DNA of 64,000 nt, from contig OZ241997.1 of NCBI GenBank assembly GCA_965204435.1, forward strand, positions 4,899,212 to 4,963,211. The letters run 5' to 3'. The DNA comes from Bryobacterales bacterium. GTDB taxonomy: Bacteria > Acidobacteriota > Terriglobia > Bryobacterales > UBA6623. Of the stretch, positions 27,657 to 38,481 are shown in pieces. The translations under genes were made by a program, and so were the position numbers. The stretch's first letter is position 1. The number at the start of each line of letters is the position of its first letter. Under the pieces are notes generated by a model. That model was given only the letters and a program-made list of their open reading frames with translations. It was not told the DNA's origin and ran no database searches.

Positions 27657-28066
27657 GCGTCCCGCGCGTTTCTCGCGGCGTTGAAGCGGCTTGCGAAGCG
27701 CCGACGCAGTCGCCAGCGCGCAAGGCCGTACTCGAAGTGCCGTCGACAGCGAATTCCGACCGCCCCGTCTCGCCCATCGCCTAACTTGTCCCGCTCATCA
27801 CCGGAGCATGCTGTACTCCTATGAAGATCCTGTGAAGGTCTTGGGGAGTCTTGGGCAGGCAAATTCAATGTTTGATGCGAACGGGGGTTGAGGCATGTCT
27901 TGGAGTGCGGGAGCTCGGCAGATGGCGTCCGTAAGCCGAGTCGGCAGGGCGTGCGAGCATGCCACAACACACGCAGGAGCCTTGGCACGGTCGCAGGGGA
28001 CCGCGCGGGCAGGGGTAGAGGCACACCTACGGCCGGGCCGCAGGGCCGGACAGGCGTGTGAGGCAG

Positions 28067-29880
28067 TCAGGCGAGCAGCAGGGCCACGGCCTCGTCCGGT
28101 TTCAGGTGCAGTTGGTCCATGCGGCGTTGGATGTTCTTCGTCTTGAGCAAGCGTAGGATCGAGATCGCGAGATTGGCGAAGGCAGCCATCAGGCGCGGCA
28201 GCGAGCCCTTGCGGATGCGGCTGGCGTCCTCGCGCAGGGCGACGTCGCGCACGTAGTGGACGCGGTTTTCAATGCCCCAGTAAAGTCGGTTCAGCTGCAG
28301 CAGTCGCTCGGGCGTGGCCCGTTCCGGCGGCAGGCTGGTCAGCAGGTAGACGGTCTCCGGCTTGCGCTGGCGGCCGTCCTTCTTGTAGGCGACCTCGCGC
28401 CGCACTTGGGCGACAAAGCGCACGCCGGGAAAGCTGATGTAGGACAGCTTTGGATCCAGTTCGTCCGAGACACGGATGCTGCGCAGCTCGATGCGGCCGT
28501 GCTCGCAGTCGCGGGTGGTGTGCGGCTGCAGACAGTCCCAGTGGAAGGAGTCGCGCACCTCCTCCAGCACCTTGTCTTGGTTGGCTTTTACGGTGAGCAG
28601 GTAGTCCAGTCCGAGGTCGAGCAGATGCTGCGCCGTGCCGCGCTGGGTGTGCAGCGCGTCAGCGATGACACAGCTGCCGGTGCCGGCCAGATCGCGCACC
28701 AGCGCGCGCAGCGCCGCCCCCTCGGCATCGTCCTTCTGCCCGCTGAAACCGAGCTGGCCGACCACCGTGCCGGAGTCCAGATCCAGCGCCGAGAGCTGCT
28801 GCTGGGCCGGCTTGTCCAGCGGCTGGCCATCCGCGCCCAGATCCCGGTCATACGACCCGCGCAGCACCTTGCCGTCCAGTGCGACCGCCTGCAGCGGCTC
28901 TGCGCCAGCGCCACCATCGTCGCTATCGTCGCTATCGTCTTCATTCTCCAAGGCTTGCTCGGCCGTCCAGGCTGCCATCAGACGCTCCACCTCGGCCTCG
29001 TCGGTGCGCTGCAGGATGTAGTGCCAGCTGCTGATGCCGGGCGCAGCCGCGAGCCGATCATCGCCAGGGTCTGTTGGCTCAGCGCCCGGCCGAAGTCGCT
29101 CAGCTGGGTCAGCGTCTGGCAGCCCGCCAGCCGCGCGCCGATCAGGATCGTCAGCGCGGTCTGCATCGGGTAGCGCAGCCCGTAGCAACTGCGCGTGTCG
29201 GGCACTTGGTCGAGGAAGGCGCGCAGGCAGCGCCATTGGGCTGGCTTGAGCATAATCTTGGGGCGCTGCCGGCGCCAGTCGGGCTGCGGCCTCGCAGCCG
29301 CGAGCTGTTGCCGCGCCGTGCGCCGTAACGGGTACACGAACACGCGCTTGGGCTGGCCGTGGCTGACGTAGCCGATGCGACCGCCGCGCTGCCGGCCGAA
29401 GCCTGCGCTGCGCCCGACCTCGATCCAGTTGGTGGCCCGGTAGCAGGTGCCGACGAAGCGGCTCGGGTCCACGAACGACTCGGCCAGCAGCAGTTCGTGA
29501 CCATGCCGTGCGAGCCAGTCGGCGCGCAGCCGGCGCAGACTCAGGCCGAGCACGCGCGAGGCCAGATGGGGCACGCTGCCGGCCTCGCACAGCAGCAAGA
29601 AACGGCTCTGATTGGCGACCAGGAACAGACGCTGGCGGCGCTGCAAGCTGGTCCAGCCGATCCAACGGTCGCGCGCGGCGCAGTGCAAGGCGGCGGCATG
29701 CCAGCCGACCAGCGCCAGCCAGCGATCGCCGAGCACGGCGACATGCCGCAGGCGATTGCCGCACAAGTTCCGGAAGCCGAGGTAGTGCCGCTCGCGCATC
29801 AACTCGTTCCAGCGCGACTCCTCGTCGGGCCGGACTGGACGGACCCGGACCTCGCGTAACGGGATGTGCTGCGATCCCAC
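28067..29880 (-). pseudogene. DUF4338 (DruA-like) domain fused to an ISAs1-family DDE transposase, split by a frameshift near 29030-29065
   Basis: Frame A (29880 down to about 29050) gives RERHYLGF, ARDRWIGW, VANQSRFLLL, HLASRVLGL, LAESFVDPSRFVGTCYRATNWIEVG (DUF4338-like), then LDQVPDTRSCYGLRYPMQTALTILIGARLAGCQTLTQLSDFG (ISAs1 N-terminal associated domain). Frame B (about 29050 down to 28067) gives PGISSWHYILQRTD...ALDGKVLRGS...VIADALHTQ...YLLTVKANQ...LYWGIENRVHYVRDVALREDASR (DDE_Tnp_1). The frames are offset by one nucleotide and no slippery heptamer is visible. Confidence 0.8.
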
Positions 29881-29982
29881 TCTGCGAGTTATCGCACAAC
29901 CACCGCTCGTTTGTCCAGCCCCTCTCCTAACTCCTTATGAAATCCGGCCCTCGCTATCGGACATTGAAAAGCCCTGGAGTCT

Positions 29983-34167: not shown

Positions 34168-34227
34168 CTATGCTCGTCGCGGTCGATACCGAACACCCTC
34201 GATACCCTCGAAGTCCGCGTCCTGCGT
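34168..34227 (-). pseudogene. vapC: 3' fragment of vapC displaced by the RIT insertion
   Basis: The minus strand from 34227 reads acg cag gac gcg gac ttc gag ggt atc gag ggt gtt cgg tat cga ccg cga cga gca tag = TQDADFEGIEGVRYRPRRA*. This is the usual PIN C-terminus (T-x-D-x-D-F), in frame with ...AELW at 37961. Confidence 0.8.
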
Positions 34228-34315
34228 CCAGCATGGGAACCCTACGATTATGGGAACCTGCCTCCCGTAACCTGTTGGGTTACAAAGGCTTGGGGGTTGA
34301 CTAGGTTCCCATAAT
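34228..34315. repeat. RIT left terminal inverted repeat (IR-L)
   Basis: ccagcatgggaaccctacgattatgggaacctgcctcccgtaacctgttgggttacaaaggcttgggggttgactaggttcccataat is the reverse complement of 37847-37934 apart from one mismatch (34305 versus 37857). Confidence 0.95.
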
Positions 34316-34316
34316 G

Positions 34317-35354
34317 CTAGCGCTCTGCCGAGTCTCCAACCGCTGCGACGTCTCCGAGCATGGCGAGGAGTTCGTCGTGCACGCCATCAAAGGATCCCTT
34401 GCGGAGGTTCGGCGGCTGCCGAGCTGACAGGATGTCGAGCTTGTTGGCCGGGTCCACCCGCAGGTACATTTCGGTCGACTGCAGACTGGCATGGCCAAGC
34501 CAGAGGGCGACCTGCCGTATGTCGCCGGTTGCCTCGAGCGTATTGAGAGCACAGGCGTGCCTCAATGCGTGTGGCGTGACGGCCTTGCTCGCGATTGAAG
34601 GCATCGTGTGTCCCGCGGTTTCCGCGTGCAGGGTGAGTCTCTTGGCAAAGCCGCGTCGCGTCATGCCGGTACCGAATGCATTCAGAAAGAGATGCTGGTC
34701 GGTACCATTTGGACGGACATGGAGCCATTTGCGTAGCGCGCTGCGGGTTTGCTTCCACAGCGGCAGGACGCGCCCGCGGCGTCCCTTGCCCATCACCCGG
34801 ATGCTGTCGAGTCCCGGCGCCTTGAGGTCTTCCAGGGCAAGGCCAACCAACTCCGAGACCCGCAGGCCGGCATTGTAGGTCAGGCACAGCATCGCACGAT
34901 CCCGCAAGCCGGTGACGGTGTCGGCAGCGGGGGCATCGAGCAAGGCCTGGACCTCGGCATGGTTGAGATACTCGACCGGCGGCAGATCACCTTTCTTCTG
35001 CGGCAAGGCATGCACCTGAGCCGCTAGGTCGAGGCACTCAGGATGTCGGAATTCCAGATAGCGGAAGAAGGACTTGATCGCAGCCAGACGGGCATTGCGG
35101 GTCCGCACGCCATTGTTCCGGTCCGCCTCGAGATGATCGAGGAAGGCGAGCAACGTCGTCGTGTCGAGATGCCCGACCTCCAACTGGCACGGTCGGACCT
35201 TGTGCCGCCGTGCTGCGAAGACTGCCAGGAGCTTGAAGCTGGCGACGTAGCTCTCAATGGTATGTGGGCTAGAGCCGCGATCGCGCGGCAGGTACTCCCT
35301 GAGGAAGCGCGCCAGAGGCCGTGCGAGATCACTCATCGTCCGTCCTCCCGGCAC
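34317..35354 (-). CDS. tyrosine recombinase, third gene of the trio (RitC position)
   Basis: 345 aa with a SAM-like N-domain (HTIESYVASFKLL). The catalytic region has LRVSELVGL, HALRHACALNTL and LGHASLQSTEMYLRV. The stop lies 1 nt from IR-L. Confidence 0.9.
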   Translation of the reverse strand: MPGGRTMSDLARPLARFLREYLPRDRGSSPHTIESYVASFKLLAVFAARRHKVRPCQLEVGHLDTTTLLAFLDHLEADRNNGVRTRNARLAAIKSFFRYLEFRHPECLDLAAQVHALPQKKGDLPPVEYLNHAEVQALLDAPAADTVTGLRDRAMLCLTYNAGLRVSELVGLALEDLKAPGLDSIRVMGKGRRGRVLPLWKQTRSALRKWLHVRPNGTDQHLFLNAFGTGMTRRGFAKRLTLHAETAGHTMPSIASKAVTPHALRHACALNTLEATGDIRQVALWLGHASLQSTEMYLRVDPANKLDILSARQPPNLRKGSFDGVHDELLAMLGDVAAVGDSAER

Positions 35355-36273
35355 GCAGTCGTTCGGTGGCCGCAGACACTTGGTTCAGCAAGACAGGCGT
35401 CGCCTCGAGGTACCAGTAGGTATCGGTGGGTTTCGCATGGCCGAGATAGGTGGACAGCGCGAGCATGTGACGGCTGATCTGCCTCCGATCGCGGGACACG
35501 ACGCCCTCCAGAGCGCGCGCCGCGAAGCCATGGCGAAGATCATGGAGGCGCGGACCGGGCTCGTCCCGTCCCCCGCGCAGTCCGAGCTGACGCGCTAGCC
35601 GGATAAAGGTATGGGTCAGATGATCGGGGCTGACTGGACGGCCAGTGGCGAGAACGAAGAAATGGTCGCCCGGGCTGCCGCATCGCAAGCGGATCTCCAG
35701 GTACCGGTCCAGTGCTGCCCGTACGCTCTCATGCAGGGGCACGAGCCGCTGCTTGCCGAATTTGGCAGTGCGAATCCGCAGTCCGTCTTGCGTGAAATCC
35801 TCGAGTTTCAGGCCGATGGCCTCCGCACGCCGCAGACCGGTCGCTGCGAGCAGCCCGATGATGTGGTGGAAGGTCACGGGTGTGATGGAGCCGGCGGGCG
35901 GCAGTTCCAGAGCCGCATCCATGACCTGCCGGACTTCCGCCAACGACAGCAGCCGGGGCGGTGGCCGGTGACGCGTCGCCCGGCCAAGGGCATCCCTGTG
36001 GGGAATCTCGTGCCGTTCGTCCTCGGCATACAGATAGTCGGCCAACCCGCGGACGAGCAGAAGCCGCCGGCGTTTCTGCTGGGGCGACGCTGCCTGCGAC
36101 GCCCAGGCGAGAACGGTTTCGACACGAATGAATCGGTCGCCTCGAGCCTCGGCATGAGCGGCAAAGCCGCCAAGAATCTGCTCTGGTTCCTGAAAGGACA
36201 GACCGGTGGCGCGCTTGAAGGCGACATATGAGATGACGTGGTCGGTCAGGGTCATCCGAGTTCTCCCGGCCAA
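35329..36273 (-). CDS. tyrosine recombinase, second gene of the trio (RitB position)
   Basis: 314 aa with GLRRAEAIGL, LHDLRHGFAARAL and LGHAKPTDTYWYLEA. It overlaps both neighbours (26 nt and 22 nt). Confidence 0.9.
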   Translation of the reverse strand: MAGRTRMTLTDHVISYVAFKRATGLSFQEPEQILGGFAAHAEARGDRFIRVETVLAWASQAASPQQKRRRLLLVRGLADYLYAEDERHEIPHRDALGRATRHRPPPRLLSLAEVRQVMDAALELPPAGSITPVTFHHIIGLLAATGLRRAEAIGLKLEDFTQDGLRIRTAKFGKQRLVPLHESVRAALDRYLEIRLRCGSPGDHFFVLATGRPVSPDHLTHTFIRLARQLGLRGGRDEPGPRLHDLRHGFAARALEGVVSRDRRQISRHMLALSTYLGHAKPTDTYWYLEATPVLLNQVSAATERLRAGRTDDE

Positions 36274-37799
36274 GGCTGAGCCAGATCGAGAAGCATCGGA
36301 ACATCCACGCGAGCGTAGATTGCCGTCGTCTTGATGGATTGGTGGCGCAGTAGAGCACCGACGGCCTCCAGAGAAATTCCGGCGCGCAGCAGGTGGGTGG
36401 CTCTGGAGTGGCGGAACAGATAGGCGGCGGGGAGGCCGTCATTGACGACCCCGATTCGTTTCATCGCGCGTCGCACGATGGAGCCGACTGCCGAACTGGA
36501 CAAGCGAGCGTGAGGAGCGAGGGACCGCAGGAACACAGTTGCGCATTCGGTGCGTGGCCGCGCTCGCAAGATGTAGTCCTTGAGGGCATTGCCGGCTTCC
36601 TGCGACAGTGGCAGAGCCGCACTGCGGCGCGATTTCCCGTTGACCCTGATGAGCGCTTGCTCCCAGTCGAGATCGCCTAGCTGCAGGGCTGTAATGTCTG
36701 CGGGGCGCAGTGCGAGCCGTGCCAGTAGCAGCAGGACGGCCCGATCCCGCAATCCGATAGAGGTTGAAGTGTCGCAACTTGCGATCAGCGCCTCAATGTC
36801 CCCCTCCTCGACATACCGGGGTAACCGTGCCTCCGTCTGCTGGGAGATCGAAGGGACCGCACCAACAAGGCCAGGGCGGCACAGCCCCTGCACCGCCAGG
36901 AACCGCAGATACGACCGCAGCGCTGTGGCCTCGTTCGCGATCTGGCCTCGCGAGTAGGATTCCGCACGGTTCAGAAAGGCAGTGCGGATCGACGCTGCAT
37001 CATAGGTCCCCGGACTATCGCCGAGCAGCAGCAACAGCCCTCGCAGGCAGCGGTCGTAGTTCCTCAACGTGATATCGCGGACGCCGCGATGACGGCGTAG
37101 CCAGCCGAGGAAGGCGTCGACATGGACGCCACGGCTCGCGCCTGGCACCGGATCGCGCCAGTCCGCAACCACACCTCGCTCGACTAGGAAGCTGGCAAAC
37201 CTTGCGAGCCTGGCCTCGGCGTCGCGGTTTCCGGAAAACGCATTGGGACGAGCGAAGAAGTGCGGATGCGCGCAAGCGCAGTCATGGTCGAGAAACCGCT
37301 GCAGGACGTCGCGGTCGAACTCTGCTAGTTCCAAGTTCGAGCGATACAGCCAAACAATGAAGTGTCGGCAGAGTGTCCGGTACGAACGAATTGTCGATGC
37401 TCGGTAACCTTGGGGCTTCAAGATGCCCGTGAACGCTTCCACGAGTCCACCGCCTGTGACAATCGCGGGCGGGACGGCCGCCAGACCGGTTTCGATCAGG
37501 TAGCCGAGAACACGATGCGCCTGCGATCTTGACCGCTCGTTCAGCTGGCTACGGAATTCGGCCGGACAGTCGCAGTCGTGGCTGAGAAAGCCGTCAACGC
37601 TGCGGATGTCCAGCGCCGCAACGTCCGATTCATTGACCGTTAGCCAAGCGACGATGTGCCGGGCTGTTCTTTTCAGATTGCTGAAGAGGCTGGCCGAATA
37701 GCCCCGGTCGTTCAGATGCGCCTCGTAGGCCGGAACAATCCGGTCGACATGCGCCTGGATGACCTCGGTTGACGCCCGAGGCGGGAAGGGTAGAGTCAT
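36252..37799 (-). CDS. tyrosine recombinase, first gene of the trio (RitA position)
   Basis: 515 aa with a long N-terminal region. The catalytic region has LALRPADITAL, FRHSRATHLLRAG and LRHQSIKTTAIYARV. The RBS AGGAG lies 7 nt upstream. Confidence 0.9.
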   Translation of the reverse strand: MTLPFPPRASTEVIQAHVDRIVPAYEAHLNDRGYSASLFSNLKRTARHIVAWLTVNESDVAALDIRSVDGFLSHDCDCPAEFRSQLNERSRSQAHRVLGYLIETGLAAVPPAIVTGGGLVEAFTGILKPQGYRASTIRSYRTLCRHFIVWLYRSNLELAEFDRDVLQRFLDHDCACAHPHFFARPNAFSGNRDAEARLARFASFLVERGVVADWRDPVPGASRGVHVDAFLGWLRRHRGVRDITLRNYDRCLRGLLLLLGDSPGTYDAASIRTAFLNRAESYSRGQIANEATALRSYLRFLAVQGLCRPGLVGAVPSISQQTEARLPRYVEEGDIEALIASCDTSTSIGLRDRAVLLLLARLALRPADITALQLGDLDWEQALIRVNGKSRRSAALPLSQEAGNALKDYILRARPRTECATVFLRSLAPHARLSSSAVGSIVRRAMKRIGVVNDGLPAAYLFRHSRATHLLRAGISLEAVGALLRHQSIKTTAIYARVDVPMLLDLAQPWPGELG

Positions 37800-37846
37800 G
37801 ATTCATCTCCTGTGCTGGTAAGAAACCAACAGAAGATGACAAGACA

Positions 37847-37934
37847 ATTATGGGAATCTAGTCAACCCCCAAGCCTTTGTAACCCAACAGGTTACGGGAG
37901 GCAGGTTCCCATAATCGTAGGGTTCCCATGCTGG
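37847..37934. repeat. RIT right terminal inverted repeat (IR-R)
   Basis: Reverse complement of 34228-34315 (87/88 identical). The ORF track independently shows the same peptide, AWEPYDYGNLPPVTCWVTKAWGLTRFP, in ORFs on opposite strands at the two sites. Confidence 0.95.
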
Positions 37935-37937
37935 GTT

Positions 37938-37957
37938 ATATCGGAACGTTCCGATAT
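37938..37957. repeat. perfect 20-bp palindrome abutting IR-R
   Basis: atatcggaac|gttccgatat. It lies in the 26 bp (37935-37960) between IR-R and the vapC junction. There is no counterpart at the left end. Confidence 0.9.
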
Positions 37958-37960
37958 CAT

Positions 37961-38278
37961 CCACAGTTCCGCGCCGTACTTGCGGGCCGTCGCGAGGATG
38001 ATACTGTCGGCCAGAGGCAGCTTCAGATCGACACTTAGCGCCGCCGCGCTCACAGCAAGCTCCGCCCCCAGCTCCGCGACAGTTCCCTGTTGCATGGCCG
38101 CCATCGCTTGAAGTGCTGCGCTCTCGCCGCGTTGCTGGAGCACCCGCTTGAACACTTCGAAGAGACTTATCGTGGGGACCACAAGGGCCTCGATGTCTTC
38201 GATCGGTTCCGCAAAGAAGGAGGCGTTTGCCCCATCGGCAAGATACTCCAGCCAGGCGCTGGAATCGACGACATTCAT
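37961..38278 (-). pseudogene. vapC: 5' part of the PIN-domain toxin gene vapC, interrupted by the RIT element
   Basis: MNVVDSSAWLEYL...VPTISLFEV...LPLADSIILATARKYGAELW is PIN-like. The ORF called at 37892-38278 continues as MISERSDITQHGNPTIMGTCLP, which is encoded by the palindrome and IR-R. Confidence 0.8.
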
Positions 38279-38481
38279 ACCCGGTCTGCCGCGCGTTCAA
38301 CGCTCGTGTCGAGTCCCTTCAAAGAACCTCTCAGCTCCCGCATCGGTCGCACAGGAATCAGCTCGATGCGGTCGCCATAGGCGATCGCTTGGATCTTCTG
38401 GCCCGGCAGGAGGCAGAGCTGATCCCGGATCTGCTTAGGAATCACGACTTGGTACTTGGGGGAAATGGTCACTGTTGCCAC
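38275..38481 (-). CDS. vapB: AbrB/MazE/SpoVT-family antitoxin
   Basis: 68 aa. ATVTISPKYQVVIPKQIRDQLCLLPGQKIQAIAYGDRIELIP is a SpoVT-AbrB swapped-hairpin motif. The GTG start follows GGAG. The stop overlaps the vapC start (ATGA). Confidence 0.8.
   Translation of the reverse strand: MATVTISPKYQVVIPKQIRDQLCLLPGQKIQAIAYGDRIELIPVRPMRELRGSLKGLDTSVERAADRV

Follow-up and report, generated by a model that had tools for sequence, protein, structure and literature searches.

The stretch of DNA described here, referred to as the window, comprises 64,000 nucleotides of contig OZ241997.1 from a Bryobacterales bacterium (assembly GCA_965204435.1, positions 4,899,212 to 4,963,211). It contains an autonomous recombinase-in-trio (RIT) element that is inserted in vapC, the toxin gene of a vapBC toxin–antitoxin (TA) module. 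The element consists of three tyrosine-recombinase genes in the order ritA–ritB–ritC that are flanked by inverted repeats (IRs). Its boundaries are fixed by natural empty-site alleles, its proteins and gene arrangement are those of a RIT, and its junctions follow a family-wide layout, in which one of the two IRs is extended by an asymmetric palindrome. Knowledge of RITs goes back to 2009 (Van Houdt et al. 2009, 2012). New are the asymmetric palindrome, the family-wide junction layout, and the natural empty site together with a sister copy of the element, which make the question of the mechanism testable.

The insertion, its target, and the three recombinases

The inserted DNA comprises 34231-37959 (3,729 bp) and a second copy of the tetranucleotide TCCA, which is found at both junctions, as an earlier sequence-only reading of the window had noted. 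On the minus strand, the right flank ends with ...GCGGAACTG-TGGA, followed by the element, and the left flank resumes with TGGA-CGCAGGACGCGGACTTC...; the first base of codon 107 of vapC (Thr, ACG) is supplied by either TCCA copy. A look-up of identical VapB proteins returned ten syntenic loci (L001-L010), all with a 125-aa PIN gene and none with the element. Their neighborhood is formed by genes for a 1149-aa outer-membrane protein, VapB, the 125-aa PIN protein, and a TonB-dependent receptor. The reconstructed flanks align uninterrupted across the junction in 10/10 of these loci with 91-99.6% identity, and none of the intact genes ends like the interrupted open reading frame (ORF) 37892-38278. 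The empty site predicted by the sequence-only reading, GAACTGTGGACGCAGG (the reverse complement of cctgcgTCCAcagttc), i.e., ...GGCGCGGAACTGTGGACGCAGGACGCGG..., is present base for base in L010 and L006, where it forms an attB-like site ...GAACTG-TGGA-CGCAGG.... Compared with the window, L006 is ~99% identical over >10 kb and L010 ~98-99% over ~8 kb; in both, one matched block runs to window position 37960 and the other to 34230, with precisely four query bases (TGGA) in common. A sister element, which is 97% identical over 3,710 bp, is found in locus L094. The contigs of L010 and L094 carry the same study prefix and belong to different BioSamples (SAMN17524319 and SAMN17524322, respectively). 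This population polymorphism, with an empty site and a second copy, supports the earlier suggestion of a recent insertion, the age of which is undatable. A chimeric assembly is rejected on account of the same junction layout in dozens of independent assemblies.

The target shows the composition of a VapBC module, meaning an AbrB/MazE-type antitoxin followed by a PIN toxin with a C-terminal TxDxDF region, as judged by profiles and by alignment to the solved VapC 7by2_B. VapB matches MazE_antitoxin of Pfam (E = 4.6e-07) and the AbrB family TIGR01439 (E = 8.7e-12), and 4 nt are common to the vapB stop and the vapC start. The PIN ORF had been described as normal up to ...AELW and then reading into element DNA; in agreement with this, the Pfam PIN match of ORF 37892-38278 stops early, at profile position 107/120 (46.7 bits). 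Joining 37960-38278 to 34168-34226 creates the uninterrupted protein of 125 aa that had been foreseen, whose PIN match reaches profile position 117/120 (56.8 bits, +10 bits); the protein collection contains an identical entry. The longer match identifies the peptide of 34168-34227 as the missing VapC C terminus, as does the alignment of AELWTQD-ADFEGIEGV to LELITRNtKDFAGIPGV of 7by2_B. With 32 bits against the 80-bit cut-off of the VapC equivalog of NCBIfam, the toxin is a divergent member. The insertion removes the last 19 residues of VapC and with them the conserved TxDxDF region that holds the last acidic residue; vapB is left intact. Read in this way, the locus would illustrate a TA module that is disarmed by a mobile element normally attacking other mobile elements.

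The three overlapping minus-strand ORFs of the sequence-only reading (36252-37799, 35329-36273, and 34317-35354) are present, and each contains a Phage_integrase catalytic domain of Pfam (RitA, E = 2e-29; RitB, 2e-17; RitC, 2e-30), with SAM-like N-terminal domains also found in RitA and RitC. Their extents are to be corrected in two cases since the likelier starts of ritB and ritC are ATG 36255 and ATG 35336, as in the gene calls of L094. With these starts, ritA and ritB overlap by 4 nt and ritB and ritC by 8 nt, again as in L094; overlaps of 4-8 bp between consecutive ORFs are the characteristic RIT arrangement (Van Houdt 2012; PMC3414803). By tblastn, the proteins are the positional counterparts, collinear in the order A-B-C, of RitA (43% identity), RitB (47%), and RitC (54%) of S. 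meliloti pSymA, of which RitA and RitC are contained in the supplement of Van Houdt 2012. Cross-matches of the window proteins to noncorresponding pSymA proteins do not exceed 31%, and the three proteins of the window share 29-30% among themselves. Because the identities between counterparts exceed those of the cross-matches, RitA, RitB, and RitC form separate families and do not result from a recent triplication. Pfam and NCBIfam contain no dedicated RitA/B/C profile; among the named profiles, XerC/XerD match best but do not reach their cut-offs. The flanking IRs, described earlier as identical at 87 of 88 positions and confirmed as such by a repeat search (87/88 complementary, 99%), have counterparts of ~90 nt in at least 50 relatives. 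That the trio is mobile as a unit is suggested by comparative evidence, namely the exact empty alleles and the 97% copy at an unrelated site. In total, 1,095 RitA relatives were found at E <= 1e-30 among 8,000 scored candidates. The closest of them (62-77% identity) occur in metagenome-assembled genomes (MAGs) labelled Bryobacterales (Acidobacteriota), and more distant ones in Paracoccaceae, Gammaproteobacteria, and Vicinamibacterales.

RitA has been described with two sequential core-binding domains and RitC with an extra C-terminal helix (Smyshlyaev 2021; PMC8138268). A tail of ~40 aa after the catalytic Tyr is present in RitC of the window. Its RitA contains SAM-like matches at residues 120-171 and 227-304 and, in addition, a duplicated N-terminal module, i.e., one module beyond the published description. 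Residues 1-215 (window 37200-37799) consist of two homologous modules of ~100 aa (E = 3e-12 between copies), followed by a third SAM-like module; each copy carries an invariant HDCxC motif (H74/C76/C78 and H172/C174/C176). The pSymA RitA lacks the first ~119 residues, and its 43% identity spans residues 120-514. The element is a member of a long-RitA (515 aa) RIT subfamily. The HDCxC motif may bind metal, or the modules may serve as extra DNA-binding units.

The catalytic pattern R...HxxR...Y, which had been ascribed to all three proteins, holds for RitB (HDLRH) and RitC (HALRH); in RitA, box II is YLFRH, its first His being replaced by Tyr (residue 462, window 36414-36416). In an alignment of 37 RitA sequences, this column contains H in 26, Y in 9 (the window included), G in 1 (the 77% relative), and S in 1. 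Movement is evident for elements that have Y or G at this position (L094, L011/L013), and the His of box II may thus be dispensable, or RitA may be noncatalytic.

The ritA leader folds into a hairpin of -22.1 kcal/mol (z = -4.15), in which the Shine-Dalgarno sequence GGAG pairs with an upstream CUCC-type tract. Both tracts are kept in 12 diverse relatives; covariation was sought among these 12, and none was found, the paired tracts being simply conserved. The hairpin may be a translational control of the first recombinase. In its composition, the element (63-65% GC) gives no contrast to its surroundings (~57-65%). All features are listed in Table 1.

Table 1. Features of the interrupted vapBC module and of the RIT element in the window. 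A caret marks the center of a palindrome here and, in the text, also the insertion point in a protein sequence.
Feature	Position	Strand	Basis
vapB antitoxin, 68 aa, AbrB/MazE-type, intact	38275..38481	-	Pfam, TIGR01439; identical protein adjoins intact vapC in L001-L010
vapC 5' part, codons 1-106 (...AELW) and base 1 of codon 107	37960..38278	-	PIN match residues 3-105; collinear with empty alleles up to 37960
TCCA, right junction J1; outer palindrome end, stretch shared with target	37960..37963		4-nt overlap of BLAST blocks from empty alleles
32-bp imperfect palindrome TGGGTTATATCGGAAC^GTTCCGATATCATCCA, 14/16	37932..37963		Repeat search; junction sequence
Perfect 20-bp palindrome center	37938-37957		Sequence
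Element DNA outside IR-R, 25 nt: central B0/B0' pair and part of overlap region	37935..37959		Missing from empty-site alleles
IR-R, ritA-proximal inverted repeat, 88 nt	37847..37934		Repeat search
(A)TGGGAACC motif in IR-R, three copies	37847-37859, 37903-37915, tip 37921-37929		Sequence
ritA leader hairpin	37800..37846	-	Folding
ritA, 515 aa: three tandem SAM-like/core-binding modules, then catalytic domain; box II YLFRH	36252..37799	-	ORF, Pfam, alignment
ritB, 308 aa from ATG 36255 (314 aa if TTG 36273)	35329..36255	-	ORF; L094 gene call
ritC, 339 aa from ATG 35336 (345 aa if GTG 35354)	34317..35336	-	ORF; L094 gene call
IR-L, inverted repeat beyond ritC, 88 nt; motif copies 34233-34241, 34247-34259, 34303-34315	34228..34315		Repeat search
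TCCA, left junction J3	34227..34230		Comparison with empty alleles
vapC 3' part: bases 2 and 3 of codon 107, QDADFEGIEGVRYRPRRA, and stop	34168..34226	-	Empty alleles; exact 125-aa product on record

Elsewhere in the window, ~2.1 kb at ~27850-29980, between the genes of a peptidase S9 and a TonB-dependent receptor, are absent from the syntenic loci L001 and L008 and appear to be a second strain-specific insertion. Its minus strand seems, judged by eye, to encode an ISAs1/IS4-like DDE transposase (motif YWGIENRVHYVRD), with a separate N-terminal ORF (28067-29899 and 28978-29880). L006 carries an IS21 in the same intergenic region.

Junctions and targets across the family

For the comparison of junctions, 79 related loci were retrieved, their IRs located, and the junctions printed; 51 elements were evaluable. 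Viewed in the orientation of ritA, the layout is X-O-B0.B0'-O'-[IR...ritABC...IR']-O-Y. Herein, X and Y are the target flanks, B is a motif of ~8 bp (ATGGGAAC/CGGAAC) that represents a putative recombinase-binding motif, and O, the overlap, is a short sequence that separates the IR tip from the central motif pair (TGGA... in the window element). Three junctions follow from this layout: J1 (X-O-B0), J2 (IR tip-O-B0, intact and internal), and J3 (IR tip-O-Y). Each IR contains a further three B motifs, of which a pair lies near the tip and the third, inverted, ~43 nt deeper. The IR sub-motif ATTATGGGAACCT is found four times in the window compared with 0.34 expected, and all four copies lie within the two IRs.

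At the ritA end of the window element, the IR ends at 37934 and the target resumes at 37960. The 25 nt between them form, together with TCCA and the IR tip, a 32-bp palindrome, whose inner arm and the IR tip create an intact second core site (J2). The sequence-only reading placed these 25 nt correctly in the element and did not recognize that they are part of a palindrome. Because the empty alleles lack it, the palindrome arrived with the element. A palindrome at threshold is found in 36/51 evaluable elements, 19 times at the ritA end and 17 times at the ritC end. The same asymmetric build, with different motifs, occurs in the RITs of pSymA (tip-TGCGC-TTATGTGGTG^CACCACATAA-GCGCA-flank) and pHG1 (TGCCTCC-TATATCGT..ACGATATA-GGAGGCA). 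The 77% relative lies in L011 and L013 within the same transposase gene in opposite orientations, with the palindrome on the same target flank. Both orientations on the same or homologous flanks, with a constant palindrome flank, were likewise seen by eye in the junctions of L017/L022, L040/L041/L081, L054/L055, L073/L074, L076/L077, and L036/L043. An origin of the palindrome from a templated hairpin (P-nucleotide type) is rejected since the overlap of the outer arm follows the target, and not the inner arm, in the window, L022, L048, L085, and L086.

Some elements appear to deviate from this layout. In L038, L053, L068, and L079, which have no palindrome, one IR tip abuts a shared sequence TGAATAGGCT(C/T)TTATCGG/GGATCGTGCG...; the GTGCG resembles the 5' end of a group II intron, and an intron may have inserted in or replaced the palindrome. 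L064 and L089 were flagged with an element-type junction at both ends. The full palindrome is visible at both ends in L064 only, the far end of L089 having an ordinary look in the printed sequence. Such double-ended junctions, if real, could result from recombination between copies or from insertion beside a solo site.

The overlap O is identical at J1, J2, and J3 in most copies. The identity between J1 and J3 amounts to 8, 7, or 6 bp in most loci, to 4 bp in the window, and to ~2 bp in L031; the overlap region of tyrosine recombinases typically measures 6-8 bp. In the window, the overlaps read TGGGTTAT (J2), TGGATGAT (J1), and TGGACGCA (J3), with only TGGA in common. L085 and L086 are two copies from one genome, in which the J2 overlap of one copy equals the J1/J3 overlap of the other, barring the first base at one junction (L086: J1 GTGTCG, J3 ATGTCG). 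One version has AGT and the other TCG, both of them Ser codons of the homologous serine-recombinase targets. Because the repeat varies in length, is usually element-borne, and is sometimes mismatched, it looks like crossover homology and not like a fixed duplication. Judged by this comparison, TCCA is more plausibly the portion of the crossover (overlap) region that is identical at both junctions, and less plausibly a target-site duplication.

The sister copy in L094 is located in an rve-type transposase gene and carries a perfect palindrome at the opposite end. Removal of the element restores uninterrupted rve-transposase ORFs in L094 (ANELW^TSD) and L011 (ANELW^MSD), and the site in vapC (AELW^TQD) lies in the same register as ANELW^(T/M)SD. 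The vapC and L094 targets have GAACT-TGGAC...AGACGCG in common, with 16/36 flanking bases (P ~0.02, simple simulation). Targets usually match O over 6-8 bp; since vapC matches it over TGGA and one G only, it looks like a secondary site, hit by an element whose usual targets are other mobile elements. A Paracoccaceae element (L030, L031, and L063) is found between three different flank pairs. Already in 2012, a Tn6049-type transposase gene and the radC gene of an integrative and conjugative element were recorded as places of RIT insertion (PMC3414803).

Related RITs were observed in group II intron reverse transcriptases (QGGxxSPL^LSN, LIKKWL^RAGV; L044, L048, L064-L066, L078, L021, and L016), large serine recombinases (LGLKGTMS^EAELH; L084-L086, L088, and L092), and rve transposases (ANELW^xSD; L011, L013, and L094), with the frame restored upon removal. 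Only cases with a recognizable motif were used herein because an automatic test for the longest ORF across the junction is too noisy in GC-rich genomes and gives the wrong frame even for the window. The 77% relative in L011 lies in a nest of mobile elements (L011 1-4311 and 9888-13093). Genes of an IS21 IstB and a large serine recombinase are found nearby, and ~3 kb upstream lies another RIT trio, whose proteins are of canonical size (419, 316, and 335 aa).

Mode of movement

The mobility of RITs has never been reproduced experimentally, and a comparison from 2023 gives "not tested" for their mode of movement, for their target specificity, and for the formation of empty sites (PMC10214605; see also PMC3414803 and PMC8138268). 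The junctions of the window and its relatives are probably best explained by site-specific integration by tyrosine recombinases via a circle with a long palindromic joint that holds two mirror-image core sites. Of this scheme, the circular intermediate, the positions of cleavage, and the proteins that bind and cut are inferred. Recombination between the direct O copies at J1 and J3 would excise a circle, in which the ends of the element form one long palindrome IR'-O-B0^B0'-O'-IR. For the window element, the predicted joined ends are ...CCCATGC-TGGNNNATAT-CGGAAC^GTTCCG-ATATNNNCCA-GCATGGG... or, in longer form, ...GGGTTCCCATGC-TGGNNNATAT-CGGAAC^GTTCCG-ATATNNNCCA-GCATGGGAACCC.... Each of the two core sites would consist of an inverted B'/B pair around a spacer of ~10 bp, and either could recombine with a target that has a few bases in common with O. 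The other core site would be left intact inside the element, where it appears as the "extra" 25 nt, and the palindrome center would always end on the same target flank in either orientation of the element. Integration of this kind would account for every form observed. That J1 of the window kept the overlap of the element (TGGATGAT) and J3 that of the target (TGGACGCA) is the product expected if a heteroduplex overlap segregates. As a speculation, RitB and RitC could be the catalytic pair, with the three-module RitA reading the extra B motifs of the IRs.

Several points weigh against this scheme. In 15/51 elements, the palindrome is below threshold; by eye, six of these are degenerate, and nine have no palindrome or other DNA abutting the IR tip. 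The motif-pair spacer of ~10 bp exceeds the classical 6-8 bp, and the catalytic role of RitA is uncertain since in the clade of the window it lacks the first catalytic His. No circle junction or excision product was observed, and JGI metagenome contigs gave no hit to the IR tip (ATCGTAGGGTTCCCATRYTGG) and so neither a circle junction nor further copies. The natural empty alleles may be sites that the element never entered and hence are no proof of excision. Opposite orientations can also be explained by inversion in place (J2 x J3), which gives the same products, and the data do not separate the two. Finally, the junction layout is undescribed as far as the accessible literature shows, but parts of it may already stand in Ricker et al. 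2013.

Three other explanations were weighed. The window alone would be compatible with transposition and a true 4-bp target-site duplication, in which staggered cuts join fixed element ends to a TCCA that is wholly target-derived: TCCA is found once in the empty site and at both occupied junctions. The relatives make this improbable. The length of the repeat is inconstant among them (8, 7, 6, 4, and ~2 bp), and in most copies (L011, L017, L024, L035, L040, L044, L092, and L094) the repeat equals the overlap of the inner core site, which shows that it is element-borne and not arbitrary target DNA; moreover, tyrosine recombinases rejoin DNA conservatively and create no duplications. Even less credit is given to the element being chiefly a segment that inverts in place or a passenger of a host insertion sequence or intron, with the vapC copy as a one-off. 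Most multicopy relatives do lie inside multicopy genes for group II intron reverse transcriptases, serine recombinases, and transposases, both orientations are found on homologous flanks, and the same caveat was raised for Tn::RIT composites (Van Houdt 2012). However, vapC is a single-copy chromosomal gene and, apart from the insertion, its flanks run collinear to those of the empty alleles with ~99% identity, the copies in the window and in L094 occupy unrelated genes despite 97% identity, and the Paracoccaceae element has three different flank pairs. For these reasons, the element moves independently; inversion may occur in addition.

A more serious competitor, though still an unlikely one, retains the same sites and replaces the double-stranded circle by another intermediate, either a folded single strand (as for integron attC sites or the strand-biased "copy-out" of SEs) or a resolved cruciform or four-way junction. 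The extended palindromic joint can form a hairpin or cruciform, in which two O copies could compete for O'. A mobilome study found exonuclease-protected RIT DNA with circle junctions undetected and proposed hairpin intermediates (PMC5737581); a long perfect palindrome, however, would hamper the assembly and mapping of circle junctions and could itself explain this negative result. SEs and Tn554 transfer a 6-bp flank to the next site (PMC10214605), to which the swapped overlaps of L085/L086 are similar, but the exact restoration of ORFs equally fits simple conservative excision and integration.

Integration via a circle with a dual-core palindromic joint is therefore retained as the preferred explanation for the window element. 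Its extension to the whole RIT family is put forward tentatively, at somewhat less than even chances. The family would then share a palindromic joint with two core sites off the symmetry center, entry in either orientation, a spare site, and an overlap that is rewritten by the target, and it would home to short conserved coding motifs of mobile elements, with look-alike host genes such as vapC being hit occasionally. If true, this would for the first time provide a widespread transposon with three recombinases with a concrete mechanism, and it would define a minimal integrase system of 3.7 kb that is possibly retargetable. The locus provides a complete natural substrate set, consisting of the attB-like site at ~99% identity in conspecific strains, both junctions, the internal core site, and the sister copy. 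Together with the shared junction layout, it allows specific predictions of how the circle junction reads, where the crossover lies, what the repeated ATGGGAAC motifs do, and how far mismatches in the overlap are tolerated.

Comparison with known systems

The RIT archetypes are Rmet_1271-1273 of C. metallidurans, PHG036-038 of pHG1, and SMa1617-1620 of pSymA. They share with the window element three co-oriented, overlapping genes A-B-C with overlaps of 4/8 nt, flanking IRs, and insertion in genes, including those of transposases; the copies of pSymA and pHG1 also share the asymmetric palindrome beside one IR. The window element differs from them by its RitA, which with 515 aa is ~100 aa longer than those of the archetypes (~390-412 aa) owing to a third N-terminal core-binding–like module with HDCxC, and which has Tyr at the first His of box II. 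Its IRs are longer as well (88 nt compared with ~34-50 nt), and the closest relatives of its RitA are found in Bryobacterales MAGs and not in alpha- or beta-proteobacteria. Unlike for the archetypes, natural empty-site alleles are available.

In integrases of the Tn916/CTnDOT type, the core overlap may be only partly identical to the target, and heteroduplex "coupling" sequences segregate. These systems and Xer-like recombinases thus resemble the window element in a partly matched overlap and in the segregation proposed for J1 and J3. They differ in that a single integrase acts together with Xis, a trio is absent, and the attachment sites are not palindromic dual-core sites.

Elements of the SE/Tn554 type likewise combine several tyrosine recombinases with the absence of a DDE transposase and of a true target duplication, and they carry along a short core from the former site (PMC10214605), comparable with L085/L086. 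In contrast to RITs, they have no long terminal IRs and no palindromic joint, their host range is narrow, and they encode extra nonrecombinase proteins (TnpC/Srap, Tfp/GinC/GinD).

Compared with other type II TA modules of the VapBC family, the target has the same order of an AbrB-type VapB followed by a PIN VapC, but its toxin gene is broken 19 codons before the end, and the vapBC module herein is the target of the mobile element and not a part of it.

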